The position numbers were made by a program, and so were the translations under genes. 49,081 nt of DNA from an uncultured Rhizobium sp. (GTDB lineage Bacteria; Pseudomonadota; Alphaproteobacteria; Rickettsiales; UBA1997), in assembly GCA_964513555.1 (NCBI GenBank), contig CAZENB010000002.1:1-49081 (forward strand). The letters are read 5' to 3'. Each line of letters opens with the position of its first letter. Positions within the stretch are counted from its first letter, which is position 1. Shown piece by piece: positions 1,141 to 46,654 of the stretch. The notes under the pieces were generated by a model. It was not told the DNA's origin. It worked only from the letters and a program-made list of their open reading frames with translations, and searched no databases.

Positions 1141-1332
1141 ATGCTTTTTAATTTTTGTTAGTATGTAAAGAAGAGTTTAGCAAAGTAAAAAGTTGTTTTT
1201 CAAGTTAGAATTAACATTTAATTTGGTAATTATCAATTAATTGGTTAATTGTTATAAAAAAAGTACTTAATGAGATTTTTTTTCTTATTTAATTCTTTTC
1301 AAAAAGAATTAAATCTTAAATTGTCTAAAGAC

Positions 1333-1361
1333 TTGTAAAAAGTATTTGAGGTAGCTATATT
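1333..1361 (+). promoter_or_regulatory. candidate sigma70-type promoter for ssrA
   Basis: TTGTAA (1333-1338), 17-nt spacer, TATATT (1356-1361), just upstream of the tmRNA precursor. AT-rich background makes chance matches likely. Confidence 0.3.
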
Positions 1362-1369
1362 TAAAATGC

Positions 1370-1750
1370 TTTTGGTTTATTCTGGAAGCTATGGTGATAA
1401 ACTTAATCTGAAATAGATGTAACATGGACTCGGGGGCGGTACCCGACATCTCCACCAATTTTTTGTTCAATTGATAAAAGTAATTGAACTTAATATAAAA
1501 CCAAAATTATTTTAGTTTTATTATTTGGGGATGAATTAGCTTCGACATGCATGATAAAGAGATTGATTTTGCCCGGTTGAGAAACTGCCGGTTTGTATTT
1601 CAATGCAGACATCCGTTCAAAAAAAGTAAACGCAAATGATAATTTTGCTAATGATAACGTAGAATTTGCTCCAGTGGCTGTAGCTGCTTAGCATAAGTTA
1701 GGTTATCGGGGTTTGCCGGTTTTCCTTGCAACAGAAAAACTGGTTTTTAA
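1370..1750 (+). ncRNA. ssrA: permuted two-piece tmRNA (alphaproteobacterial type): acceptor piece first (3' CCA at 1455-1457), intervening hairpin, then coding piece starting GGGGATG at 1527
   Basis: The 3' acceptor strand catctccACCA (ends 1457) pairs with ggggatg (1527-1533), giving a G3:U70 wobble. T-arm is tcggg/cccga. Intervening segment has an 8-bp hairpin gttcaatt/aattgaac (1465-1489). Tag ORF 1632-1691 reads gca aat gat aat ttt gct aat gat aac gta gaa ttt gct cca gtg gct gta gct gct tag = ANDNFANDNVEFAPVAVAA*. A possible closing helix pairs ggtttattctg (about 1375-1384) with cagaaaaac (1742-1750). Outer ends are approximate. Confidence 0.8.
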
Positions 1751-1773
1751 TAAAAACTCTTAAAAAATTTTTC

Positions 1774-2265
1774 ATGCAAGACTTAATTGGGTATGATGAA
1801 ATCATTGAAAACTCAATGCGTTCAGTGATTTTTGAAACATTGAAAAAAGTAGAAAAAACGGGTCTTCCTGGAAAGCACTATTTTATTATAACCTTTTTAG
1901 TACGTTTTCCTGGAGTTGTTATGCCAAAAAGTCTTTTGGAAAAGTATCCAGAAGAAATGACTATTGCAATTCAGTATCAGTATAAAAACTTGGTCGTTGA
2001 ACAAGATGATTTTAAAATATCACTAAGTTTTTCTGGAAAATATGAAAAGCTTACTATTCCCTACAAAGCTGTAACTTCATTTACTGATCCTTCCATGAAT
2101 TTTGGTCTAAAGTTCAGTGTAAATTATGACGATTTAGTTGAAGATGGAATAGATGATAATCTAAGTCCAGCAAACAAAAGTGAACCAAAGAAGAAAGAAA
2201 TTGATTTGTCGGCAAAGATAGTTTCTCTAGACGCTTTTAGAAAAAATAAAGATCAAGATAATTAA
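1774..2265 (+). CDS. sspB: ClpXP adaptor SspB (alphaproteobacterial type)
   Basis: EKYPEEMTIAIQYQYKNL...LTIPYKAVTSFTDPSMNFGLKF and the C-terminal IVSLDAFRKNK (ClpX-binding-like tail) resemble Caulobacter SspB-alpha as I recall it. ATG at 1774 is preferred over the track's TTG at 1726, which overlaps the tmRNA. Confidence 0.8.
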   Translation: MQDLIGYDEIIENSMRSVIFETLKKVEKTGLPGKHYFIITFLVRFPGVVMPKSLLEKYPEEMTIAIQYQYKNLVVEQDDFKISLSFSGKYEKLTIPYKAVTSFTDPSMNFGLKFSVNYDDLVEDGIDDNLSPANKSEPKKKEIDLSAKIVSLDAFRKNKDQDN

Positions 2266-2955: not shown

Positions 2956-3663
2956 ATGTTACATTCAGAAATTAAAGATCGTCTAATTATTGCTCTTGAT
3001 GTTCCAGATTTTATATCCGCAAAAAATTTAGTTGAAAAAATTGAAGAAGAGGGTGTTTTTTATAAGATAGGATTAGAATTAATGATGAGCGGTGATTACT
3101 TTAAAATTATAGAATGGCTTAAAGAAAGAAATAAAAAAGTTTTTGCTGATTTGAAGCTTTATGACATATCTGAAACTGTTGGAAGATCTGTTAAAAATTT
3201 AGCTCAATATGAAATAGATTTGCTGACTATTCATGCATCAAGTCGTCAAATTATGGAACAAGCTGCTCAAAATAAAGGTAAAATGCAAATTGCTGCAGTA
3301 ACAGTTTTGACAAATTTAGATCAAAGTGATTTAAAAGAAATGGGTTTTGATGTTAATATTTCTTTGTCAGATTTAGTGATTAAAAAAGCTGAATTAGCAA
3401 TTGATTGTGGTATTGATGGAGTTGTGGCATCAAGTCATGAAAGCGGAATGTTGAGAGGAAAATTGGGGCAAGATTTTTTAATTGTAACACCGGGAATTAG
3501 ATTGGCAAAAGTTGCAAATGACGATCAGAAAAGGGTTGCTGATGTGAAAGAAGCAATTAGTCAAGGAAGCTCTTATTTAGTGGTTGGAAGACCAATTACT
3601 CGTGATGAAAATCCAAAAGAAATGGCGGCTAAGTTTAATAAAATGATTTACTCTGCTTTATGA
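2956..3663 (+). CDS. pyrF: orotidine 5'-phosphate decarboxylase
   Basis: LIIALDV, FADLKLYDI, TPGIR and VVGRPI motifs; 235 aa. Confidence 0.9.
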   Translation: MLHSEIKDRLIIALDVPDFISAKNLVEKIEEEGVFYKIGLELMMSGDYFKIIEWLKERNKKVFADLKLYDISETVGRSVKNLAQYEIDLLTIHASSRQIMEQAAQNKGKMQIAAVTVLTNLDQSDLKEMGFDVNISLSDLVIKKAELAIDCGIDGVVASSHESGMLRGKLGQDFLIVTPGIRLAKVANDDQKRVADVKEAISQGSSYLVVGRPITRDENPKEMAAKFNKMIYSAL

Positions 3664-5183
3664 AGCTAAACCAATTTATTGATAAAATAGAAATTTCTTA
3701 CGAATTAATTTATGGTGCAAGTTTTATTGATGAAATTTTAGTTGAAGATATTGCAATTGACTCGCGTTTAGTAAAAGAAAAAACAGCCTTTTTTGCTATA
3801 AAAGGTAAAGTTCTTGATGGCAACTTTTTTATTAATGATTCTATAAAAAAAGGCGCCTCAGTAATTGTTTCTTCTGATATTGAGTTTTTAAAGAATTTAG
3901 CTTTAGTCGATGAGAAAGTGCTGTTAATTTTTTCTCAAGAAATTCATAAGCTTCTTATAGAATTTTTGCAGAATTTCTATTCAAATTTACCTTCAAATAT
4001 CTACGCAGTTACAGGAACTAATGGTAAAACTTCAGTTGCTGAGTTTTGTCGTCAAATTTTTACATTAGCTGGAAAAAAAGCAGCTTCAATTGGAACTTTG
4101 GGTGTTACTTGTGATTACTTAGACCAGAATCAAATTCAACAAACTGCTCTTACAACTCCTGATATAGTTTCTTTTTACAAAAACCTTTCTTTTTTGAAGA
4201 AAAACGGTGTTGATGATGTTGCAATTGAAGTTAGTTCAATTGGGCTTGAACAAAACCGAACTGGCAAAGTTGGTATTACAGTTGGTGCTTTTACTAATTT
4301 TACCCAAGATCATTTAGATTATCATAATACCATGGAAGAGTATTTTGATTGCAAAATGATTTTATTTAAATCTGTTTTGCAACAAAACTCTACTGCAGTT
4401 ATAAATAGTGATATCAAAGAGTATCAAGAAATTAATGAAATTTGTCAGAAAAGAGATTTAAAAGTCATAAGTTATGGCTTTGAAGCAATTTCAAAGAATT
4501 CTTTGCGAATTATAAATATAGAACAAACTTTTGAGGGACAAAAAGTTGCCTTTGAATTTTTGGGTGAAGAATATAATTTTAATTTGTCTATTAGTGGTGA
4601 TTTTCAGGCTTATAACGCAATTTGTGCTTTAGGTATTTTTCTTTCAAACAATAGTTGTTCTAAGAAACAATTGGAAGAAATTTTGCAAAATTTCCATAAA
4701 CTACATTCTGCTTTGGGAAGAATGCAAATAGCAGGAGTTTTGCCAAATAAAGCTCAAGTTTTTATTGATTTTGCACATACTCCGGATGCTTTAAGTAATG
4801 TTTTGCAATTGGCACGTAAAATTACCAATAAAAAAGTGGTAGTACTTTTTGGTTGCGGTGGAAATCGTGATAATAAAAAAAGAGCAATTATGGGAAAAGT
4901 TGCTTCAGAGTTAGCTGATATTATTATAGTTACTGATGATAATCCAAGATTGGAAGATGCAAAAAAAATTCGTGCTGAAATTTTGCAAGGATGTGATTTG
5001 AAAAAAGCTTTTGAAATTGCTAACAGGGAAATTGCAATTACTAAAGCAATTCCAATGTTGCAAAGTTATGATATTTTGATTTTGGCTGGTAAAGGTCATG
5101 AAAAATATCAAATAATTGGTACAAACAAAGTTGAATTTGATGAGGAAAAAATTGTTCGAAATGTTGTTGCCAGAATATCTTAA
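3660..5183 (+). CDS. murE: UDP-N-acetylmuramoyl-L-alanyl-D-glutamate--2,6-diaminopimelate ligase
   Basis: VTGTNGKTS P-loop, DDNPR(LED) DAP-specificity motif, Mur ligase domain order. ATGA overlap with pyrF. Confidence 0.92.
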   Translation: MKLNQFIDKIEISYELIYGASFIDEILVEDIAIDSRLVKEKTAFFAIKGKVLDGNFFINDSIKKGASVIVSSDIEFLKNLALVDEKVLLIFSQEIHKLLIEFLQNFYSNLPSNIYAVTGTNGKTSVAEFCRQIFTLAGKKAASIGTLGVTCDYLDQNQIQQTALTTPDIVSFYKNLSFLKKNGVDDVAIEVSSIGLEQNRTGKVGITVGAFTNFTQDHLDYHNTMEEYFDCKMILFKSVLQQNSTAVINSDIKEYQEINEICQKRDLKVISYGFEAISKNSLRIINIEQTFEGQKVAFEFLGEEYNFNLSISGDFQAYNAICALGIFLSNNSCSKKQLEEILQNFHKLHSALGRMQIAGVLPNKAQVFIDFAHTPDALSNVLQLARKITNKKVVVLFGCGGNRDNKKRAIMGKVASELADIIIVTDDNPRLEDAKKIRAEILQGCDLKKAFEIANREIAITKAIPMLQSYDILILAGKGHEKYQIIGTNKVEFDEEKIVRNVVARIS

Positions 5184-8100
5184 AACAAAATTCCAAATTG
5201 ATTTTATTGACCTTTATGATGTTGAGGGATTAAAAAAAGTTGATGAAAAATTTTCACAATTTCTAGAACAAGAAAATAATCAATTAAACAAAGATTTTTT
5301 ACAGTTAAAAAAAGATAAAAATAGTTTTACTGCTAATCAGCAATCCTTAATTCTAATTGATGTAGCGGTTGTGTTAGAAAAGTTCTTAGTTACTTTATTT
5401 AACATAGAAAAAGAAAATTCAGAACTAAAAAGTAAGCATGATAACTTAAAAAATATTTACAAAATTAGACGTAATTTTGTTCAAAGAGATGTTGCAAAAA
5501 GTTTTTCTAGTTGCCCAAGGGATATTGATGGATTTTCAATCTTAAAAAATTTGAAAATTGAGTTTGATGATGTTGATGATTTAGAGAAAAAGATTGCTGA
5601 AGAGATAAATTTGGGAAGGAATTTAAAAGATCTTACGAATTATACAATATGGGCCATATATAGTGATGAAGGGAAAAAATTTCATAAAAATGGTGCTCTT
5701 TTTATTATTCCACAAAAAATTGATTGCAATAACTTGCTTGCCTCAAGTCATGAAAAATCTAAACGTTCAGATTTTAATCTAACTGATCAAGGATTTAATT
5801 TAAATCGTGTTTTAGGAGAATCCAACTATTGTATTTTTTGCCATAAACAACAGAAAGATTCTTGTAGAAGTGGTATTAAAGAACGATCTTCTTTTTGTTA
5901 TCCTGAGAGCAGCGAAGGATCTTGTACAACAAACTCAGGATTTTCTCAAGATTCTTCGTTTTTGCCTCAGAATGACAAGAAGAGATTTCAAGATGAAAAT
6001 AAATTCAAGAAAGATGAGCTTGGCATTGATTTGCATGGATGTCCACTTGATGAAAGAATTTCAGAAATGAATTTACTAAAGTCAGAAGGCTTTTCAGTTG
6101 CGGCTCTTTCAATTGCAGTTGTTGATAATCCAATGATTGCTGGAACTGGACACAGAATTTGTAATGATTGCACAAAATCTTGTATTTATCAAAAACAAGA
6201 ACCAGTCGATATTCCTCAAATTGAAACTAGAACTTTAAAAGATGTTCTGAATTTACCTTATGGATTTGAGATTTACTCTTTATTGACTAGATGGAATCCA
6301 CTCAATTTAGATCAAAGTTTACCTAGAGAAAATTCTGGTAAAAAAATTTTAATTGCTGGTCTTGGTCCTTCAGGATACACTTTGGCGCATTATTTGCTTA
6401 ACTCAGGACATGAAGTGGTTGCAATTGATGGTCTTAAAATTGAGCCTCTAAACAAAGAGATATCTGGATTAGATGAGTTTGGAAATATTTGCGATTTTAA
6501 GCCTATTAAATTTTTAGATGAAATTTACGAACCTCTATCATCGCGCTTGATTCATGGTTTCGGTGGTGTTGCTGAATATGGAATTACAGTTCGTTTTGAC
6601 AAAAATTTCTTAAAAATTATTAGAATTATTTTAGAACGCAGAAGAAATTTCAGAATGTTTGGAGGAATTCGTTTTGGGTCATCAATTACTGACAAAATTG
6701 CATTTGAAAATTATGGTTTTGACCATGTAGCGCTTTGTCTTGGAGCTGGTCGTCCCAACATAATTAATCTTAAAAATAACTTTGCCAAGGGTGTGCGTCA
6801 AGCTTCTGATTTTTTGATGTCTTTACAGTTAACGGGTTCTTTCAAAGAAAATTTATTTACTAATTTGCAAATTAGAATGCCAATTGTTGTTATTGGTGGA
6901 GGATTAACTGCAGTTGATACAGCTTGCGAAGCAAGAATGTACTACGTAAGTCAAATTAAAAAATTTGTCCAAAAAGTTGAAAAAATTGGTAAAAATAACC
7001 TATTTTCATTGCTTACTAAAGAAGAAAAAATAATTGCTGAAGAATTTATAAGTCATGCTTCTGAGCTTGAAAATAGTGGTGATATTGATTTTTTGATTAG
7101 AAAGTGGGGTGGAGTTAAAATTTTATATCGTAAAAAAATTCAGGATTCTCCAGCATATAAGTTGAACCACCAAGAGCTTAACAAAGCTTTTGAAGAAGGA
7201 ATTGAGTTTATTGAAAATATTAGTCCTTTGGAAGTTGAAATTGATGAATTTAATCATATCAAAGCTTTGAAATGCGCTGATGATAAATTATTTGAATGTA
7301 GATCTTTGTTAGTTGCGGCTGGAACTTCACCAAATTTATCTCCAAAATTAGAGGATAATTTAGATTTTAAAATTGATGGAAAATATTTTGCACAAACCGT
7401 GCATTTTAATTCCAATTTTGGCTCAAGACACTTTAATTTTATTACTAAAATTGATGATAAAACTAAAAAAGCGGTAAGTTTTTTTGGGGATTTGCATCCA
7501 AATTTTGAAGGAAATGTGGTAAAAGCAATGGCAAGTTCCAAGATTGGCTATAAGCAGATAAATCAAATGCTGGAATTGTTACAAAATAAAGAAAATCACA
7601 ATTTTCTGGATAAAATTAAATCAGAATTTTCAGTAATAATTCATAAAATTGAGAAACTATCAGATCATGTTTGTCAAATTTTTATTAAAGCTCCACTTTT
7701 GGCAAATCAGACAGAGCTGGGTCATATTTTTAGATTGCAGAATTATCATGCTCTTGCCTTAAAAGATGAAAGTGGTCATTTAATGGTAATGGAAGGAGTT
7801 CCTTTGACGGCTTTAGATGTTGATCGTGAAAATGGAATTATTACAGCAATTGCTTTGGATTTTGGTGGCTCTACATCTCTTATTAAAAATTTAAGTGAAG
7901 GTGAGCCTTGTATTTTTATGGGACCTTCAGGAAAACCAACCGAAATTTCAAAAAATGAAACGGTGTTGTTAATTGGAGGTGGAAGAGGAAATCAGCCTTT
8001 AACTGCTCTTGCTAGAGCTTTTAGAAACAATGGTTGTAGAGTAATTTACTTTGCTGGTTATCGCAAAAATTCTTACATTGTGAATCAAGAATTGATGGAA

Positions 8101-8550
8101 AAAAACTCTGATATTGTTGTTTTTGCAATTGAAGAAGAAGCCCCAAATTTGAATCTAATCAATGAATGCAATCAAGTAGTAAGTGGATCAGTAATTGAAG
8201 CGCTGAGAATTTACTTTGTCAAAAACCCTGTAAAAATTGATCGTGTATTTACAATTGGAAATAATAAAATGATGCATGAAGTTGCAAAATTGAGACATGA
8301 TGGTTCAGTTAAATCTATCTCAGAAGCAAAAATTGCTATTACTAGTTTAAATTCTCCAATGCAATGTATGCTAAAAGGCGTTTGTTCACAGTGTTTGCAA
8401 AAAAGAATCAATCAGCAAGGTAAAGAGGAGTATTTTTATTCTTGTGGTGATCAAGATCAGAATATGGATAAGTTTGATTTTAATCACCTGAAAAATCGTT
8501 GTGAGCAGAACTCTTTGATGGAAAAAACAATAAAAAATTGGTTGAATTAA
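5161..8550 (+). CDS. large multidomain iron-sulfur flavoprotein: GltD-like (4Fe-4S Cys motif plus NAD(P)/FAD Rossmann) fused to a PyrK/FNR-like domain with a C-terminal 2Fe-2S Cys motif
   Basis: CIFCHKQQKDSC...GCPLDERISEM (GltD-like cluster motif). ILIAGLGPSGYTLAHYLL and VVIGGGLTAVD dinucleotide folds. C-terminal FMGPSGKPT...LLIGGGRGNQP...CMLKGVCSQCLQK...YSCGDQD (PyrK-like). The start is ambiguous (TTG 5116, ATG 5140, ATG 5161); 5161 was chosen to minimise overlap with murE. Confidence 0.65.
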   Translation: MLLPEYLKTKFQIDFIDLYDVEGLKKVDEKFSQFLEQENNQLNKDFLQLKKDKNSFTANQQSLILIDVAVVLEKFLVTLFNIEKENSELKSKHDNLKNIYKIRRNFVQRDVAKSFSSCPRDIDGFSILKNLKIEFDDVDDLEKKIAEEINLGRNLKDLTNYTIWAIYSDEGKKFHKNGALFIIPQKIDCNNLLASSHEKSKRSDFNLTDQGFNLNRVLGESNYCIFCHKQQKDSCRSGIKERSSFCYPESSEGSCTTNSGFSQDSSFLPQNDKKRFQDENKFKKDELGIDLHGCPLDERISEMNLLKSEGFSVAALSIAVVDNPMIAGTGHRICNDCTKSCIYQKQEPVDIPQIETRTLKDVLNLPYGFEIYSLLTRWNPLNLDQSLPRENSGKKILIAGLGPSGYTLAHYLLNSGHEVVAIDGLKIEPLNKEISGLDEFGNICDFKPIKFLDEIYEPLSSRLIHGFGGVAEYGITVRFDKNFLKIIRIILERRRNFRMFGGIRFGSSITDKIAFENYGFDHVALCLGAGRPNIINLKNNFAKGVRQASDFLMSLQLTGSFKENLFTNLQIRMPIVVIGGGLTAVDTACEARMYYVSQIKKFVQKVEKIGKNNLFSLLTKEEKIIAEEFISHASELENSGDIDFLIRKWGGVKILYRKKIQDSPAYKLNHQELNKAFEEGIEFIENISPLEVEIDEFNHIKALKCADDKLFECRSLLVAAGTSPNLSPKLEDNLDFKIDGKYFAQTVHFNSNFGSRHFNFITKIDDKTKKAVSFFGDLHPNFEGNVVKAMASSKIGYKQINQMLELLQNKENHNFLDKIKSEFSVIIHKIEKLSDHVCQIFIKAPLLANQTELGHIFRLQNYHALALKDESGHLMVMEGVPLTALDVDRENGIITAIALDFGGSTSLIKNLSEGEPCIFMGPSGKPTEISKNETVLLIGGGRGNQPLTALARAFRNNGCRVIYFAGYRKNSYIVNQELMEKNSDIVVFAIEEEAPNLNLINECNQVVSGSVIEALRIYFVKNPVKIDRVFTIGNNKMMHEVAKLRHDGSVKSISEAKIAITSLNSPMQCMLKGVCSQCLQKRINQQGKEEYFYSCGDQDQNMDKFDFNHLKNRCEQNSLMEKTIKNWLN
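5900..5977 (+). repeat. palindromic element family 1, copy A, inserted in frame in the flavoprotein CDS
   Basis: Left arm atcctgagagcagcgaaggatct (5900-5922) and right arm agattcttcgtttttgcctcagaatgaca (5949-5977) are imperfect inverted repeats. The 78 nt equal 26 codons and encode (Y)PESSEGSCTTNSGFSQDSSFLPQND. The arms match copies at 15398, 45721 and 36191. Confidence 0.75.
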
Positions 8551-11857: not shown

Positions 11858-12700
11858 ATGAAAATTATTGTTGCAAATTGGAAAATGAATCATGCTTTTG
11901 AAGAAGCTGATTCTTGGCTTAAAGTTTTTTCTAAACTTGTTTTAGATAATAAAAATAAATTTGCTGAAATTGAATCAGTTGTTTGCCCACCTGTTTTTAT
12001 GATTGATTATATTGACAGTGAATTAATGGATAATGGTTTTAGAAAACTGGACTCAATCGTAAAAAGTCAAAATAGAAATATTGAAAGTTTTACTGAAGAA
12101 GAATTAAGCGAAATTATTTTAAAAGAACGTCCAATAAAGATTGGTGGACAAGATTGTCATTTTGAAGATTCTGGTTCTTTTACAGGTGATATAAGTGCTT
12201 CTTCACTTAAAAAAATTGGCTGTGAATATGTAATTCTTGGTCATTCTGAGAGAAGGGAAGGACACTTTGAGACTAATGAAATTATTGCAAAGAAAGTTAC
12301 CGCAGCCTTAAAAAAAAATATAACGCCAATAATTTGTGTTGGGGAAAGTAAAGAAACTCGTGATCAATCAAAGCATTTAGAGTTTGTTTATAAACAGATT
12401 ATGAGTTCAGTTCCTCAAGATATAAAATTTGATAAATTGATCATTGCTTATGAGCCCATTTGGTCAATTGGAACAGGAGTCACTCCAAGTTCTGAACAAA
12501 TTAAGGAAATGGCAAAATTAACTAAGAAAATTTTTGCTGAAAAATTGGACGGTGTTGCAAATCAATATTTTATGCTTTACGGCGGTTCGGTAACTTCACA
12601 AAATTCTGCTGAAATTTTGAAAATTGAAAATGTTGATGGACTTTTGGTGGGCAAGGCAAGCCTTGATGCTGAGGAGTTTGTCCGTATTTGTTTATCTTAA
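11858..12700 (+). CDS. tpiA: triosephosphate isomerase
   Basis: ANWKMN, GHSERR, AYEPIWSIGTG and YGGSV motifs. At 280 aa it carries an extra segment after the CPP motif. Confidence 0.92.
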   Translation: MKIIVANWKMNHAFEEADSWLKVFSKLVLDNKNKFAEIESVVCPPVFMIDYIDSELMDNGFRKLDSIVKSQNRNIESFTEEELSEIILKERPIKIGGQDCHFEDSGSFTGDISASSLKKIGCEYVILGHSERREGHFETNEIIAKKVTAALKKNITPIICVGESKETRDQSKHLEFVYKQIMSSVPQDIKFDKLIIAYEPIWSIGTGVTPSSEQIKEMAKLTKKIFAEKLDGVANQYFMLYGGSVTSQNSAEILKIENVDGLLVGKASLDAEEFVRICLS

Positions 12701-14259: not shown

Positions 14260-14670
14260 ATGAAAAATTTAGATATTCGTTGTAAACAAAGGTTTCAAAA
14301 TTATGAAAAAGCTTTTGCGCTTTTGAGTGATGCTTTGAAAGATGGTGCTGATAAATTGTCGCTTTTAGAAAAAGAAGGTGCGCTACAACGTTTTGAATTT
14401 ACTTTTGAATTGGCGTGGAAAGTAATGAAAGATTACTTGGAAGAAAGCGGTGTGGTGATAAATCCAGTAACCCCAAAAAATGTTATTAAACAGGCTTTTG
14501 TTGCCAAGATTATAGAAAATGGACAAGTTTGGATTGATATGTTAATGAGTCGTAATCTTATGTCGCACACTCATGATTTTATAAAATTTGAAGCAATTGC
14601 CAAGGATGTTGAAACAAAATATTTGTCTGAACTTAAGAAGTTGGAACAATTTTTTAAGACAACACTATGA
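14260..14670 (+). CDS. hepT: HEPN-domain protein, HI0074 family (nucleotidyltransferase substrate-binding protein); HepT-like toxin
   Basis: LQRFEFTFELAWKVMKDYLEE core and an Rx4H motif (SRNLMSH); 136 aa. Confidence 0.85.
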   Translation: MKNLDIRCKQRFQNYEKAFALLSDALKDGADKLSLLEKEGALQRFEFTFELAWKVMKDYLEESGVVINPVTPKNVIKQAFVAKIIENGQVWIDMLMSRNLMSHTHDFIKFEAIAKDVETKYLSELKKLEQFFKTTL

Positions 14671-14966
14671 AATGCGGTCTTGAAGAACAGCAATTAAAGT
14701 TAATAAATTCAGTTTTCTCTCAAAATAATAAAATTAAATCAGTCAAGGTTTTTGGTTCTCGCGCTAAAGGAAATTATCGTCCTAATTCTGATATTGATTT
14801 GGCAATTGATGGTGAAATTAATGATATTGAGGCTCAATTAATTTTAACTCAATTAGATGATCTTCCACTGCCATATATTTTTGATGTTAAAGTTGTTAAA
14901 AATATAAATAATGCTGATTTAGTTGAGCATATAAAAAGAGTTGGAATATCAATTTATGAAAAATAA
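14667..14966 (+). CDS. mntA: minimal nucleotidyltransferase (MNT), HI0073 family; MntA-like antitoxin
   Basis: VFGSRAKGNYRPNSDIDLAI (GSxxxG...DxD NTase motif); 99 aa; ATGA overlap with the HEPN gene. Confidence 0.85.
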   Translation: MKCGLEEQQLKLINSVFSQNNKIKSVKVFGSRAKGNYRPNSDIDLAIDGEINDIEAQLILTQLDDLPLPYIFDVKVVKNINNADLVEHIKRVGISIYEK

Positions 14967-16230
14967 CAATTTTGACATTATAATAATTGGTGGATCATTT
15001 GCTGGAATGACTTCCGCTCTTGCTTTAAGCAACGTGTCGCCCAATTTAGAAATTGCGGTGATTGAGAAACAAGATATCACAAAAGAAGATAGAAAAGCTG
15101 ATGGTAGAGCTTATGCAATTTCCGCTGCATCATTAAAGTTATTCAAAGAAATTGGTATTTATAACGATTTAAAATCTATAGCTGGAAAAATTTCTGATAT
15201 AAAAATTACTGATTATAAATCGCCATTCTTTCTTGATTTTTTAGGAAAAGAAGTTGATGAAAAAGAAGGTCAATTAGGACAAATTATTGAAAATCATCAT
15301 ATTCATAATGCACTTAGAAATAAGCTCTTAAAGCGTGAAAACATTACTCTTTTTTGTCCTCATTCATATGAAGAAATTAATTTTGAACATCATTGTAATC
15401 CTAAGCGAAGTGAAGGATCTCATAATAATGAAGTTTGTAACACGAAATCTTTCGTTTGCGCTCAGGATAACAAAAACGGTAATGTTTTAGTAAAACTTGA
15501 TGATGGGAAAGTTTTGAAGTCAAAATTGCTTTTGGCTTGTGATGGTCGTTTTTCTAAGTTGCGTGAGATTTATCAAATTCCAACTACTCAAAAAAAATAT
15601 CATCAAACAGCAATAGTTTTTAATGTGCAGCATAAAAATTCTCATGAAAACGTAGCTTATGAAAAGTTTTTACCAGGTGGTCCTTTGGCAATTCTTCCAA
15701 TGCAAAATAAATATCAATCATCAATTGTTTGGATTGCAAAAGACAATGATGCACAAGCAATACTTAGTTTGGATGAAGAAAATTTTGTACATCAATTACA
15801 AAAGAAAATAGAAAATTCTTTGGGTGATGTTCAAGTTATTTCACAAAAATTCTCTTATCCTTTAATTTTGGTTGAAGCCAACAAATTCTATCATGAAAAG
15901 ATGCTTTTGATTGGAGATGCTTCAGCCGGAGTTCATCCGATTGCAGGACAAGGCTTTAATCTGGCAATTAGTGGAATTAATATTTTGTGTAATTTGATTA
16001 AGAATGCCTTATTTTGTGGACAAGATATTGCATCAAAAAGTGTGATTGAAGAATATAATAAGAAGGCAAAGCTGGGTGCAAAAAAAATGATTATTGCAAC
16101 TGACATTCTAAATTCCATTTTTGAAACCAAAAGTTTTTCTATTGCTTTAGCTCGTGATGTTGGTCTTGGTTTAGTAAATAAAATCTCTGTTTTAAAAAAG
16201 TTTTTTATTAAATCTGCAGGCGGATTTTAG
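14956..16230 (+). CDS. ubiH: UbiH/UbiF/VisC/COQ6-family FAD-dependent ubiquinone-biosynthesis hydroxylase
   Basis: DIIIIGGSFAGMTSALAL (GxGxxG), LLLACDGRFSKLRE, LIGDASAGVHPIAGQGFNLAI. ATG at 14956 is preferred to the track's TTG at 14941. The gene overlaps the mntA stop by 11 nt. Confidence 0.85.
   Translation: MKNNNFDIIIIGGSFAGMTSALALSNVSPNLEIAVIEKQDITKEDRKADGRAYAISAASLKLFKEIGIYNDLKSIAGKISDIKITDYKSPFFLDFLGKEVDEKEGQLGQIIENHHIHNALRNKLLKRENITLFCPHSYEEINFEHHCNPKRSEGSHNNEVCNTKSFVCAQDNKNGNVLVKLDDGKVLKSKLLLACDGRFSKLREIYQIPTTQKKYHQTAIVFNVQHKNSHENVAYEKFLPGGPLAILPMQNKYQSSIVWIAKDNDAQAILSLDEENFVHQLQKKIENSLGDVQVISQKFSYPLILVEANKFYHEKMLLIGDASAGVHPIAGQGFNLAISGINILCNLIKNALFCGQDIASKSVIEEYNKKAKLGAKKMIIATDILNSIFETKSFSIALARDVGLGLVNKISVLKKFFIKSAGGF
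15398..15472 (+). repeat. palindromic element family 1, copy B, inserted in frame in the ubiH-like CDS
   Basis: Left arm atcctaagcgaagtgaaggatct (15398-15420) and right arm aaatctttcgtttgcgctcaggataaca (15445-15472). The 75 nt equal 25 codons and encode (N)PKRSEGSHNNEVCNTKSFVCAQDN. Orientation and reading frame are the same as copy A. Confidence 0.75.
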
Positions 16231-16261
16231 TTTTGGTTTAAATTATTACTTTTAAATAAAT

Positions 16262-16358
16262 GGATTGCCATTTTGCAAAGCTCATTGCGGTGATAAGGAA
16301 AGTTATTTTGCTCCTTATTAAACAAGTCATTGCGATGGGCTTCAGAGACATGGCAATA
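16262..16358. repeat. palindromic element family 2 (RPE-like), intergenic
   Basis: Terminal inverted repeat attgccat (16264-16271) / atggcaat (16350-16357). Inner imperfect palindrome around ataagga...tccttat. cattgcg occurs twice (ctcattgcggtg, gtcattgcgatgg). The cattgcga...ggcaat pattern recalls Rickettsia RPE cores. Confidence 0.6.
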
Positions 16359-16428
16359 CATAAACTGCGAATATAGAACAATTTATATTTCTTAGAATTG
16401 GTTTTTTAAAATTTATTATTTTTATTTA

Positions 16429-45001: not shown

Positions 45002-45619
45002 ATGACAAAAAGAATTAACGCAAAAAAGAAATTCAGCAGAAAATTAGGCGCAAGTCTTTGGGGACAAGCTAAAGATCCTTTTGCTAAAAGAAATTATAAA
45101 CCAGGACAACATGGTGCTTCTCCTAAAGGAAGGCCAAGCGATTATGGTAATCAGCTTCGTGCTAAGCAAAGAATGAAATTTTATTATGGTAACATTTCTG
45201 AGAAACAATTCTTCAACCTTTTCCAATTAGCAAGCAAATCGAAAGGTGATGTAAGTGAAAACTTTGTAGCACTCCTTGAAAGCAGAATTGATGCTGTTAT
45301 TTATCGTGCAAACTTTGTTCCTACAGTTTTTGCAGCAAGACAATTTGTTAACCACAAACACGTAACTGTTAACGGACAAGTTGTTAACATTCCTTCTTAC
45401 AGAGTTAAAATTGGTGATGTTGTACAAGTTAGAGAAAGATCTCGTAAATTGACAATTGTTATGGAATCTTTACAAAAAATGGAAAGAGATATTCCAAGCT
45501 ACTTGCAACTTGATAAAGACACTTTCAGCATTAAATTGACTGAAAAACCAGCATTTGCTGAAGTTCCTTATCCTGTTGAAATGCAACCACATTTCATTAC
45601 AGAGTTTTATTCAAGATAG
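45002..45619 (+). CDS. rpsD: 30S ribosomal protein S4
   Basis: 205 aa. N-terminal KLGASLWG...YKPGQHG and an S4 RNA-binding domain (LESRIDAVIYRANF..T...ARQFVNHKHVTVNGQVVNIPSYRVK). Confidence 0.96.
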   Translation: MTKRINAKKKFSRKLGASLWGQAKDPFAKRNYKPGQHGASPKGRPSDYGNQLRAKQRMKFYYGNISEKQFFNLFQLASKSKGDVSENFVALLESRIDAVIYRANFVPTVFAARQFVNHKHVTVNGQVVNIPSYRVKIGDVVQVRERSRKLTIVMESLQKMERDIPSYLQLDKDTFSIKLTEKPAFAEVPYPVEMQPHFITEFYSR

Positions 45620-45720: not shown

Positions 45721-45760
45721 CTGTCATCCTTAGTAAAGCGAAGGATGACAGAATTTTTTT
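45721..45760 (+). terminator. rho-independent terminator of rpsD formed by the left arm of repeat copy C
   Basis: Perfect 11-bp stem ctgtcatcctt/aaggatgacag with a 9-nt loop, followed by aattttttt. Confidence 0.65.
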
Positions 45761-45806
45761 ATCATAGATGATTTGTTTAGATTCTTCGTTTTGTTACGGA
45801 TGAAAC
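45721..45806. repeat. palindromic element family 1, copy C (full-length, intergenic)
   Basis: Left arm ctgtcatccttagtaaagcgaaggatgacag (45721-45751) and right arm agattcttcgttttgttacggatgaaac (45779-45806) align with the arms of copies A and B. Confidence 0.7.
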
Positions 45807-45832: not shown

Positions 45833-46654
45833 TTATGCTGTAAGATGTTTAGCTATCTCGCAGAATTGTTCAATTGTGAGATTTTCTGCTCTTAATTGTG
45901 GATCAATTTTTGTTTTTTGCAAAACTTCTTCTACGTCTTTAAAAACTGATTTTAAAGAAGATCTGATCATTTTTCTTCTTTGATTAAAAGCTGCCGCAAC
46001 AACTTTTTCTAGTTTATTGAAATTAACATCAGAAGTTGGTTTTTCTTTTGGAATAATTTCAACAATTGCTGATGTAACCTTTGGTGGAGGAGTAAAAACT
46101 GTTTTATTAACAGTAAACACCATTCTTGTATCACACAAAAAATTAATCATAACTGCTAATCTTCCATAATGATTATCGCCAACTTTTGCTGTAATTCTTT
46201 CTACAACTTCCTTTTGCAACATTAAATGCATTGAAGATATATTATTTGATATCTTTAACCATTTAAAGATTAAAACAGTTCCAATATTATAGGGTAAATT
46301 TGCTATAATTTTAAATTTTCTATCACCAAATAAGTCTTTTTCGTTAATTGTTAAAGCATCACCTGAAATAATTTTTAAATTTTCACCATAAAATATCTGA
46401 AGCTCTTTTAATGCTTCAATGCATCTTTCATCGCGCTCAATTGCGTACAGTTTTTTTGGTTTTGAATCAAGTATTGATCTTGTCAAACTTCCTGGTCCTG
46501 GACCAATTTCAAGAATTTCAAATTCTTCTAAACTGCCAGCAGATTTTACAATTTTGTCAGTAAAGTTTTTATCAAGAATAAAGTTTTGCCCCAGTGATTT
46601 TTTTGCATTTAGCTGATATTTTTTGATAATTTCTGAAGTGGAGAGGAGGGGCAT
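45833..46654 (-). CDS. rsmA: 16S rRNA (adenine1518/1519-N6)-dimethyltransferase
   Basis: LGQNFL, EIGPGPGSLT and NLPYNI motifs; 273 aa. Confidence 0.94.
   Translation of the reverse strand: MPLLSTSEIIKKYQLNAKKSLGQNFILDKNFTDKIVKSAGSLEEFEILEIGPGPGSLTRSILDSKPKKLYAIERDERCIEALKELQIFYGENLKIISGDALTINEKDLFGDRKFKIIANLPYNIGTVLIFKWLKISNNISSMHLMLQKEVVERITAKVGDNHYGRLAVMINFLCDTRMVFTVNKTVFTPPPKVTSAIVEIIPKEKPTSDVNFNKLEKVVAAAFNQRRKMIRSSLKSVFKDVEEVLQKTKIDPQLRAENLTIEQFCEIAKHLTA

Follow-up and report, generated by a model that had tools for sequence, protein, structure and literature searches.

Copy B within the hydroxylase gene

The window analysed here, a 49,081 nt stretch of DNA (contig CAZENB010000002.1, positions 1 to 49,081) with an AT-rich base composition of 30.7% G+C, harbours on its + strand a gene (14956..16230) for a 424 aa flavin adenine dinucleotide (FAD)-dependent ubiquinone hydroxylase of the UbiH/UbiF/VisC/COQ6 family, in which a short palindromic repeat, designated here copy B (15394..15472, + strand), is embedded in frame. 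The host protein was matched by NCBIfam TIGR01988 (361.9 bits, against a cut-off of 224.65) and by PDB entries 4n9x, 7mwa and 4k22. Copy B, which encodes about CNPKRSEGSHNNEVCNTKSFVCAQDN, represents a dimer of two inverted, TGTC-tagged units with outward-facing heads, the unit resembling repetitive extragenic palindromic (REP) elements.

The imperfect palindrome spans 79 nt, from TGTAAT at 15394 to ATAACA at 15472, and is composed of a left unit (15394..15420, + strand; TGTAATCCTAAGCGAAGTGAAGGATCT), a copy-specific 24 nt spacer (15421..15444, + strand) and an inverted right unit (15445..15472, + strand), the reverse complement of which (TGTTATCCTGAGCGCAAACGAAAGATTT) is one base longer than the consensus described below. 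The tag of the left unit is degraded from TGTC to TGTA, with the internal stem ATCCT/AGGAT being intact. The segment was shown to fold into a single hairpin of -23.6 kcal/mol, as compared with a mean of -15.1 kcal/mol for shuffled sequences (z = -3.0), none of the 200 shuffles being as good.

A preceding interpretation of the window from its letters only (referred to here as the sequence-only reading) had described a palindromic element of 75 nt, or 25 codons, in frame in this UbiH-family gene and ahead of the LLLACDGRFS motif. The arm coordinates, the open reading frame (ORF) and the significance of the hairpin all bear out such an element: its arms atcctaagcgaagtgaaggatct (15398-15420, + strand) and aaatctttcgtttgcgctcaggataaca (15445-15472, + strand) are present at the positions given, and the peptide PKRSEGSHNNEVCNTKSFVCAQDN, translated from 15400 in the + strand ORF 14956..16230, is followed downstream by LLLACDGRFS. 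The element was found to start four bases further 5' and to measure 79 rather than 75 nt, and the figure of 25 codons is approximate only, since the 75 nt span is not codon-aligned.

An insertion in a tolerant turn

Comparison of the hydroxylase with its 120 closest homologues, obtained with the product of 14956..16230, revealed that 93 of these orthologues possess at most eight residues between the flanking motifs YEEIxF and VxVKLDDG. Similarly, the solved homologues 4n9x and 4k22, which align to residues 5-142 and 177-423, have five residues at this location versus 34 in the window protein, in agreement with the earlier proposal that copy B is an insertion missing from UbiH orthologues. In the AlphaFold model (mean pLDDT 75.6), residues 146-173 are predicted to form a coil with a pLDDT below 50, located between the predicted strands 138-143 and 177-181, i.e. 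at a hairpin turn in the FAD-binding domain. The loop is thus predicted to be disordered and is one that tolerates extra residues, and the insertion explains the presence of a low-confidence loop of ~30 residues in an otherwise conserved enzyme. The insert diverges faster than the remaining protein, with ~60% versus 89% identity to homologue P0002.

A corresponding comparison was made for the host protein of a second copy in the window, copy A (described below), for which 14 other aligned orthologues of this RP005-like fusion protein were considered. The copy A segment was not found in any of these 14; 13 of them possess three to 10 residues at the site in question (KDSCxxG(I/L)KEK to FKKDxLG), while the remaining one (P0135) contains an unrelated repetitive insert at this loop. 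Based on these alignments, both copies are regarded as insertions.

The other 27 of the 120 closest hydroxylase orthologues carry other inserts at exactly the same turn, the loci considered for this site being L122, L123, L125 and L126. At least four kinds of turn insert were discerned, i.e. the TGTC family described here, siblings with a CCCGT or CTTGT centre (with peptides VILSPSKDD, FDKLxMT and HPELVEG), an inward-headed TGTC-tagged REP encoding GPRHEDGVT...VTPHSLRGP, and others. The two turn inserts that were inspected as DNA both proved to be strong palindromes, that of the sibling in locus L125 reaching -83 kcal/mol. To judge by these sequences, several REP families have repeatedly landed in the hydroxylase turn, which represents a new finding; a loop that accepts at least four kinds of REP would also constitute a convenient system to separate insertion preference from tolerance.

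One homologue, P0003, is identical to the window protein across its C-terminal two thirds, with its N-terminal third and insert matching P0060, which belongs to a different lineage. This mosaic could be due to recombination or to chimeric assembly.

The repeat unit and its distribution

The consensus of the repeat unit encompasses 27 nt, TGTC-ATCCT-GA-GCGNAGC-GA-AGGAT-CT, comprising a TGTC tag, a 5 bp stem (ATCCT/AGGAT) that starts with AT, two G/A mismatches and a GC-GNA-GC mini-hairpin. The unit accordingly has nine stacked positions, two of which are G/A mismatches, a GNA loop of 3 nt (or a CGNAG loop of 5 nt if the inner C-G is counted as loop) and a tail CT(C).

A 20 nt arm pattern was scanned over one genome per species (596 Gb), which yielded at least 120 stretches. 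By our own estimate, chance alone would yield a few hundred single pattern matches in 596 Gb, and single matches therefore prove nothing. Inverted partners were consequently more informative; the counts of matches, pairs and dimers reported from here onwards are those among the matches listed. An inverted partner at most 220 nt away and with at most five mismatches was observed for 68 of 145 pattern matches, where the chance background peaks at eight to nine mismatches. In 58 partnered matches, which include many dimers read twice (once per strand), the partner is located downstream, the arrangement being TGTCATCCTGAGCGNAGCGAAGGATCT followed by a spacer of 11-160 nt and then by the reverse complement of the first arm. 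Partnered arms were present in Acidobacteriota, Chloroflexota, Gemmatimonadota, Planctomycetota, Bacteroidota, Omnitrophota, Nitrospirales, and Gamma- and Alphaproteobacteria. Although the search pattern did not include the TGTCAT head, all six positions of the head are 83-95% conserved; the first is T (83%) or C (9%), and the following three are G, T and C (94-95%). Among 71 adjacent unit pairs, 49 were heads-outward dimers; of these 49, found in other phyla, 44 lie outside and five inside long open frames. Single units also occur alone, for example at 36190..36222 in the window and in locus L123.

Covariation was assessed across 36 distinct arms, with 500 shuffles and slid controls. Of all cells, 96.8% were paired (17-52% in the slid controls), and five of the seven pairs were changed on both sides, a result that none of the 500 shuffles reached. 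Compensatory changes are exemplified by C-G/T-A/G-C at columns 7/23 and G-C/A-T at columns 12/18. The start of the stem is A5-T25 in 30 and T6-A24 in 33 of the 36 arms; the central position of the triloop is free, any of the four bases being found there. This pattern of substitution indicates that each unit is itself a stem-loop.

Rfam searches at gathering thresholds identified only the transfer-messenger RNA (tmRNA) in the window, and searches at E <= 1 of eight loci with canonical copies returned only chance microRNA-like hairpin matches. Full-text literature searches for the DNA motif and its translated peptides retrieved nothing relevant beyond primers.

Other copies in the window and their kinship

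A weight matrix built from the arms of copies in other phyla, with 200 shuffles as the null, detected four copies in the 49 kb window, two genic and two intergenic. Copy A (5896..5977, + strand) is an inverted dimer of the same family, located in frame within an RP005-like glutamate-synthase-beta/oxidoreductase fusion gene (5140..8550; ORF 5116..8550). Its palindrome reaches outward to about 5885-5987, its fold amounts to -42.9 kcal/mol (z = -6.6), and its tag is, like that of copy B, degraded (TGTT). An intergenic dimer (45722..45805, + strand; fold z = -4.1) is situated between the convergent ORFs 45002..45619 (+ strand) and 45833..46654 (- strand), and scored 20.3 bits at 45722 and 10.0 bits at 45779 on the minus strand. 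The fourth copy is a single unit on the - strand (36190..36222; TGTCATCCTGAGCGTAAGCGAAGAATGACA), with one extra base, directly 3' of ORF 36228..37049 (- strand). Both intergenic copies occupy positions that are typical of REPs.

The kinship of copies A and B, as proposed by the sequence-only reading, holds by the family profile, with scores of 38.7 bits at 5896 and 32.3 bits at 15394 versus a maximum of 5.1 bits in 200 shuffles. The direct DNA similarity between the two is modest (57 of 84 aligned columns). When 1/-1 scoring was applied, the top match of copy B elsewhere in the window was copy A (31.6 bits, equalled by three of 500 shuffles), and its three top matches were all members of the family. 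Under stricter scoring (blastn-short, copy B against the window), the best match was a 12 nt exact word in copy A, which did not rise above shuffles. We take the cross-phylum profile to be the decisive evidence for family membership, supported by the near-consensus orthologous copy in a relative (see below).

The translation of copy A (CYPESSEGS...SSFLPQNDK) has the same orientation and frame as that of copy B, as previously claimed. The peptides that had been given as shared between the arms require one adjustment, as S-F in one copy is offset by one residue from S-F in the other; in homologous register, the right arms read D/K-S-S/F-F/V-L/C-P/A-Q-N/D-D/N-K. Since their spacers differ and they occupy different genes, the two copies represent separate insertion events, as had been suggested.

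A further profile match at 12239-12265 (17 bits, against a shuffle maximum of 5) was taken as coincidence, as it falls on the conserved triosephosphate isomerase motif ILGHSERR. The sequence encoding this motif, GGTCATTCTGAGAGAAGGGAAGGACAC, agrees with the unit consensus in 20 of 27 positions.

Mobilization

Target-site duplication was not found among the 49 dimers, where direct identity of the flanks was seen in five cases at 1 nt and in two at 3 nt. Instead, inverted complementarity is frequent between the flanks (in 26 of the 49 dimers at 1 nt), which tend to extend the palindrome. Across the loci examined for element-linked genes (~0.9 Mb), neither a transposase gene nor any gene other than groES-groEL was found between widely spaced arms. 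The arms in locus L039, 2.3 kb apart, were considered as a candidate autonomous element and rejected, as they flank groES-groEL.

The conserved head, the covarying fold and the lack of duplication resemble the substrates of RAYT-type enzymes, and we therefore favour recognition of a folded single strand. The folded single-stranded unit would probably be recognized by a protein, by analogy with the recognition of REPs by RAYT-type HUH transposases, and may be inserted in a manner that leaves no target-site duplication, a suggestion that we advance with reserve.

Alternatively, the repeat could be a classical miniature inverted-repeat transposable element (MITE), i.e. a deletion derivative of a DDE-transposase insertion sequence (IS) whose 27 nt terminal inverted repeats are bound as double-stranded DNA and whose insertion generates a target-site duplication. 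Such an origin would be compatible with the small size of the element, its conserved 27 nt inverted termini (TG...CA) and its variable interiors of 11-160 nt. Conversely, the flanks display inverted complementarity rather than direct duplication, single units occur alone, the only 2.3 kb pair of arms encloses groES-groEL rather than a transposase gene, and each arm self-folds with covariation, which a protein-bound duplex end would not need. A parent IS with the same ends was not seen in the ~0.9 Mb of loci, which is a small sample. Taken together, we consider a MITE improbable.

Age and decay of the insertions

A freshwater metagenome contig (L121), the protein of which is labelled 'Pelagibacterales bacterium' by NCBI, was found to be syntenic with the window from ~5 to 18 kb, at ~88% protein identity. 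As L121 harbours both insertions at the same sites, both predate the split between the two genomes. The hairpins have fared differently: that of copy B amounts to -23.6 kcal/mol in the window versus -63.1 kcal/mol in L121, and that of copy A to -42.9 versus -20.7 kcal/mol. Copy B of L121 is almost consensus in sequence and has the same spacer as its counterpart in the window (to which, unlike the spacer of copy A, it is homologous), whereas the window copy differs from it mainly by G/C-to-A/T changes, mostly uncompensated. In copy A of L121, part of the right arm has been lost, and the window hairpin is the better kept of the two. Both copies look like old, tolerated and decaying insertions, the stems of which erode independently while the frame is kept. 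Together with the perfect copy in locus L122, the near-perfect copy in L121 and the eroded copy in the window provide a natural time series at a single site.

This independent erosion with retention of the frame speaks against the hairpin having been selected for a role in these genes, e.g. as a cis-acting element in mRNA stability, processing or translational pausing, with the encoded peptide being incidental. Such a role would accord with the persistence of the element since before the L121 split, with the fold of copy B, which is still significant relative to shuffles, and with the frequent transcription of REPs and their action as RNA, according to the text of PMC3733652. Nonetheless, most of the stem stability of copy B has been lost in the window, its differences from L121 are for the most part uncompensated, and copy A shows the opposite trend, being better kept in the window than in L121, all of which looks like independent neutral erosion; moreover, 93 of the 120 orthologues manage with no insert at all. 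A selected cis-acting hairpin is thus very unlikely, and copy B would rather appear to be a repeat that has no function of its own in the hydroxylase gene.

In L121 (10440-10680), a partial left arm lies upstream of copy B, which is also bordered by three tandem right-arm ends (GCGCTCAGRATGACAAAAGTG); these encode a peptide repeat, DDKSGAQNDKSGAQDDKSS, and represent a local expansion of the locus. A second contig (L124; JACCDT010262460.1, GCA_013565695.1) encodes a hydroxylase that is 99% identical to that of the window and includes the same eroded insert. The assembly concerned consists of >260,000 contigs, a number more suggestive of host-associated or bulk material than of a bacterial isolate, and the organism is possibly a symbiont.

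Reading frame

From the common frame of the two copies, a frame-biased insertion mechanism or, alternatively, selection for a tolerated peptide had been proposed. Each arm contains TGA in one frame only (tcc-TGA-g, gga-TGA-c), leaving two of the three frames open in both copies, and it is therefore unsurprising that two copies share a frame. In this lineage, five genic copies of the exact subfamily were identified, all of them in phase TGT-CAT-CCT-GAG: copies A and B, a perfect 70 nt dimer in L122 (the 16 nt spacer of which differs and thereby marks an independent insertion), the single unit in L123, and P0084. Five of five corresponds to p ~0.06 if the copies are independent. The CCCGT-centred sibling subfamily, which shares the stem, occupies the same turn in P0025, P0029 and P0095 but is translated there in the other phase (VILSPSKDD...FDGLRMT). 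Two putative genic copies in other phyla (loci L064 and L085) likewise use the other phase. The lengths of the 49 dimers are distributed 14/15/20 over the three residues modulo 3, without bias.

Insertion that is mechanistically phased to the reading frame, rather than sorted by selection afterwards, would be in keeping with the uniform TGT-CAT-CCT-GAG phase of all five genic subfamily copies in the lineage. However, there is no mechanism known by which the reading frame would be sensed, the majority of copies are extragenic with lengths spread evenly modulo 3, the two open frames give the five-of-five result a p of ~0.06 at best, and the siblings at the same site as well as the copies in L064 and L085 are in the other frame. 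We hence give little credence to the phased mechanism, and this part of the sequence-only reading is not upheld. The same phase in all five genic copies is compatible with its other suggestion, in the form of selection for the more polar peptide, and is suggestive only. Stop-codon filtering in combination with peptide tolerance explains the frame data. A further notion, that the hydroxylase ancestrally possessed the segment as a functional part which is self-complementary by chance, can draw on its in-frame translation and its conservation between two genomes, yet it is already contradicted by the alignment with close orthologues and is scarcely credible. The solved homologues, the rapid divergence and low model confidence of the segment, and the recurrence of the same DNA in a second gene, in intergenic regions and in other phyla likewise weigh against it.

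The Acidobacteriota locus L064 contains at ~3120-3450 an MFS-transporter ORF with SFPRKWES in frame, the other frames reading IPTFAGMT and LDSHFRGND. As these peptides are signatures of CGTC-1 REPs (see below), the site may represent a genic REP in another phylum.

Relation to known repeat families

The CGTC-tagged REP superfamily was defined by Di Nocera, De Gregorio & Rocco (2013, BMC Genomics 14:522; PMC3733652). According to the text of that paper, its members carry an unpaired tag at one end of the unit, often TGTC, have stems of 8-9 bp that start with AT, loops of 4-5 nt and a tail near CCA, and are mostly arranged as inverted dimers with spacers of 20-100 bp. They are reported there from five phyla, mostly from Alphaproteobacteria, as chiefly extragenic elements located 3' of genes, with many in-frame genic copies that add 20-30 residues, and as having no known associated transposase; the Rickettsia conorii elements RPE-6 and RPE-4 are included in the superfamily. 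The unit described here largely matches this architecture, sharing the T/C-G-T-C tag, the AT-start stem, a short tail, the inverted dimers, the in-frame genic copies and the lack of a known dedicated transposase. Of its dimers in other phyla, 44 of 49 lie outside long open frames, and in the window two of four copies are genic. It was found in more phyla, in particular in Acidobacteriota and Chloroflexota. The Sulfurovum peptide 'RHSELVSGS' resembles the related RHPELVSGS inserts observed here. The stem-loop sequence ATCCT-GA-GCGNAGC-GA-AGGAT was not recognized among the four published CGTC families as given in the text and supplements of the paper; the unit is either a CGTC-2 variant or an undescribed sibling, and probably constitutes a new sequence family.

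In-frame repeats in Rickettsia genes, i.e. Rickettsia palindromic elements (RPEs), were reported by Ogata et al. (2000, Science 290:347; 2002, Genome Res 12:808), as summarized in PMC10969869. The likeness to RPEs is considerable, as in both cases the hosts are AT-rich alphaproteobacteria with compact genomes, in which palindromic repeats occur in frame at fold-compatible sites of housekeeping genes unrelated to one another, as well as between genes; RPE-4 and RPE-6 furthermore have the same kind of CGTC tag. In contrast, the host is not Rickettsia, its nearest records being uncultured freshwater or host-associated metagenome-assembled genomes labelled Pelagibacterales or Rickettsiales, and the element measures 79-82 nt versus ~150 bp for RPE-1. 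The peptides also differ, with VIPAKAGI, SFPRKRES and VIPWLDHGI for R. conorii RPE-4/RPE-6 versus HPERSEGS and LRFAQDD here, in a comparison of peptides rather than of RPE consensus sequences. Copy B is an eroded in-frame insertion of the REP/RPE type, a known kind of element in a new lineage. This extends gene-resident repeats of the Rickettsia type to an uncultured, AT-rich alphaproteobacterial lineage, and implies that CHPERSEGS, VILSEAKDL and LRFAQDD, when encountered in predicted proteins, are translated repeat DNA and not protein motifs. As to the sequence-only reading as a whole, the insertion and the kinship with copy A were recognized, and the known element class and the ancient, decaying state of both copies were missed.

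REP doublets of the type considered here are reminiscent of REPINs, which were reportedly described by Bertels and Rainey in 2011. As in the GTAG REPs of REPIN/RAYT systems (Nunvar et al. 2010, PMC2817692), two inverted units form a long hairpin, the small stem-loops are in several cases of the GNA type, and there is no target-site duplication. The two systems differ in that the head is TGTC rather than GTAG, and in that no unit-flanked RAYT gene was found in the loci and the window. The sequence GCGNAGC corresponds to the rule for the extraordinarily stable d(GCGNAGC) mini-hairpin of Hirao and co-workers (reviewed in PMC13037366). Every unit centre conforms to GCGNAGC in sequence, the middle base being free, and may adopt this fold; the mini-hairpin is known from single-strand origins of phages and plasmids and as a synthetic tool, and is not known to form the centre of any dispersed repeat.

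Proposed history of copy B

On balance, copy B is in all likelihood a small, non-autonomous palindromic repeat of the REP type that entered the gene in frame long ago; it consists of two inverted 27 nt units with outward TGTC heads around a copy-specific spacer, and has since been tolerated and eroded, presumably without a function of its own, while its movement may have involved a folded single strand. The element landed in the turn between two β-strands of the FAD-binding domain of the hydroxylase prior to the L121 split. It would have persisted because it added a multiple of three bases and no stop codon to a tolerant loop, and it now appears to be eroding by G/C-to-A/T substitutions while the frame is maintained.

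Several observations weigh against parts of this proposal. The nearest-neighbour DNA energy of the isolated 27 nt unit (-2.7 kcal/mol) is not better than that of shuffles and does not single the unit out, so that the case for its fold rests on covariation. When nine RAYT/TIRYT proteins were used as tblastn queries on the window and all loci, only a 54-residue remnant in L064 and one weak match in L085 were returned, neither of which is flanked by units. Relative to the CGTC superfamily, the stem of the unit is interrupted by two G/A mismatches, its tail is CT instead of CCA and its loop is 3 nt (or 5 nt), and the peptides HPERSEGS, ILSEAKDL and LRFAQDD do not feature in the list of genic REPs in PMC3733652. 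In addition, the lack of function is based only on erosion in two lineages, and copy numbers and the genic/intergenic ratio for the organism are extrapolated from 49 kb.

A bolder proposal, which we offer as speculation and consider rather doubtful, is that the unit represents an unnamed, nearly pan-bacterial REP family, whose 27 bases are near-identical from Acidobacteriota to Alphaproteobacteria. This constancy might be imposed by a widespread protein that reads the folded single strand with its GNA mini-hairpin and two G/A pairs, and the same agent might have repeatedly placed the unit and its siblings in the UbiH-like loop. Cross-phylum constancy and internal covariation, in a repeat for which no transposase is known, bear on the question of how CGTC-type REPs spread.

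Neighbouring features

Directly 3' of the hydroxylase gene (16255-16375), an imperfect palindrome of ~100 nt was observed that apparently belongs to another family. Its arms are GGATTGCCAT... and ...ATGGCAATAC, with an inward-facing AGTCATTGCGATGG head, and its DNA fold amounts to -18.8 kcal/mol (z = -2.8). Upstream of the hydroxylase gene, between it and a fumarase gene, genes for a nucleotidyltransferase substrate-binding protein and a nucleotidyltransferase (14260-14966) form a HEPN/MNT-like pair, the second gene of which overlaps the hydroxylase start. This upstream slot is variable, being occupied by the same HEPN/MNT-like pair in L121 and by Bro-N-domain or other genes in L122, L123 and L125. 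The tmRNA of the window (1329-1782) is of the two-piece (permuted) alphaproteobacterial type, with tag peptide ANDNFANDNVEFAPVAVAA.

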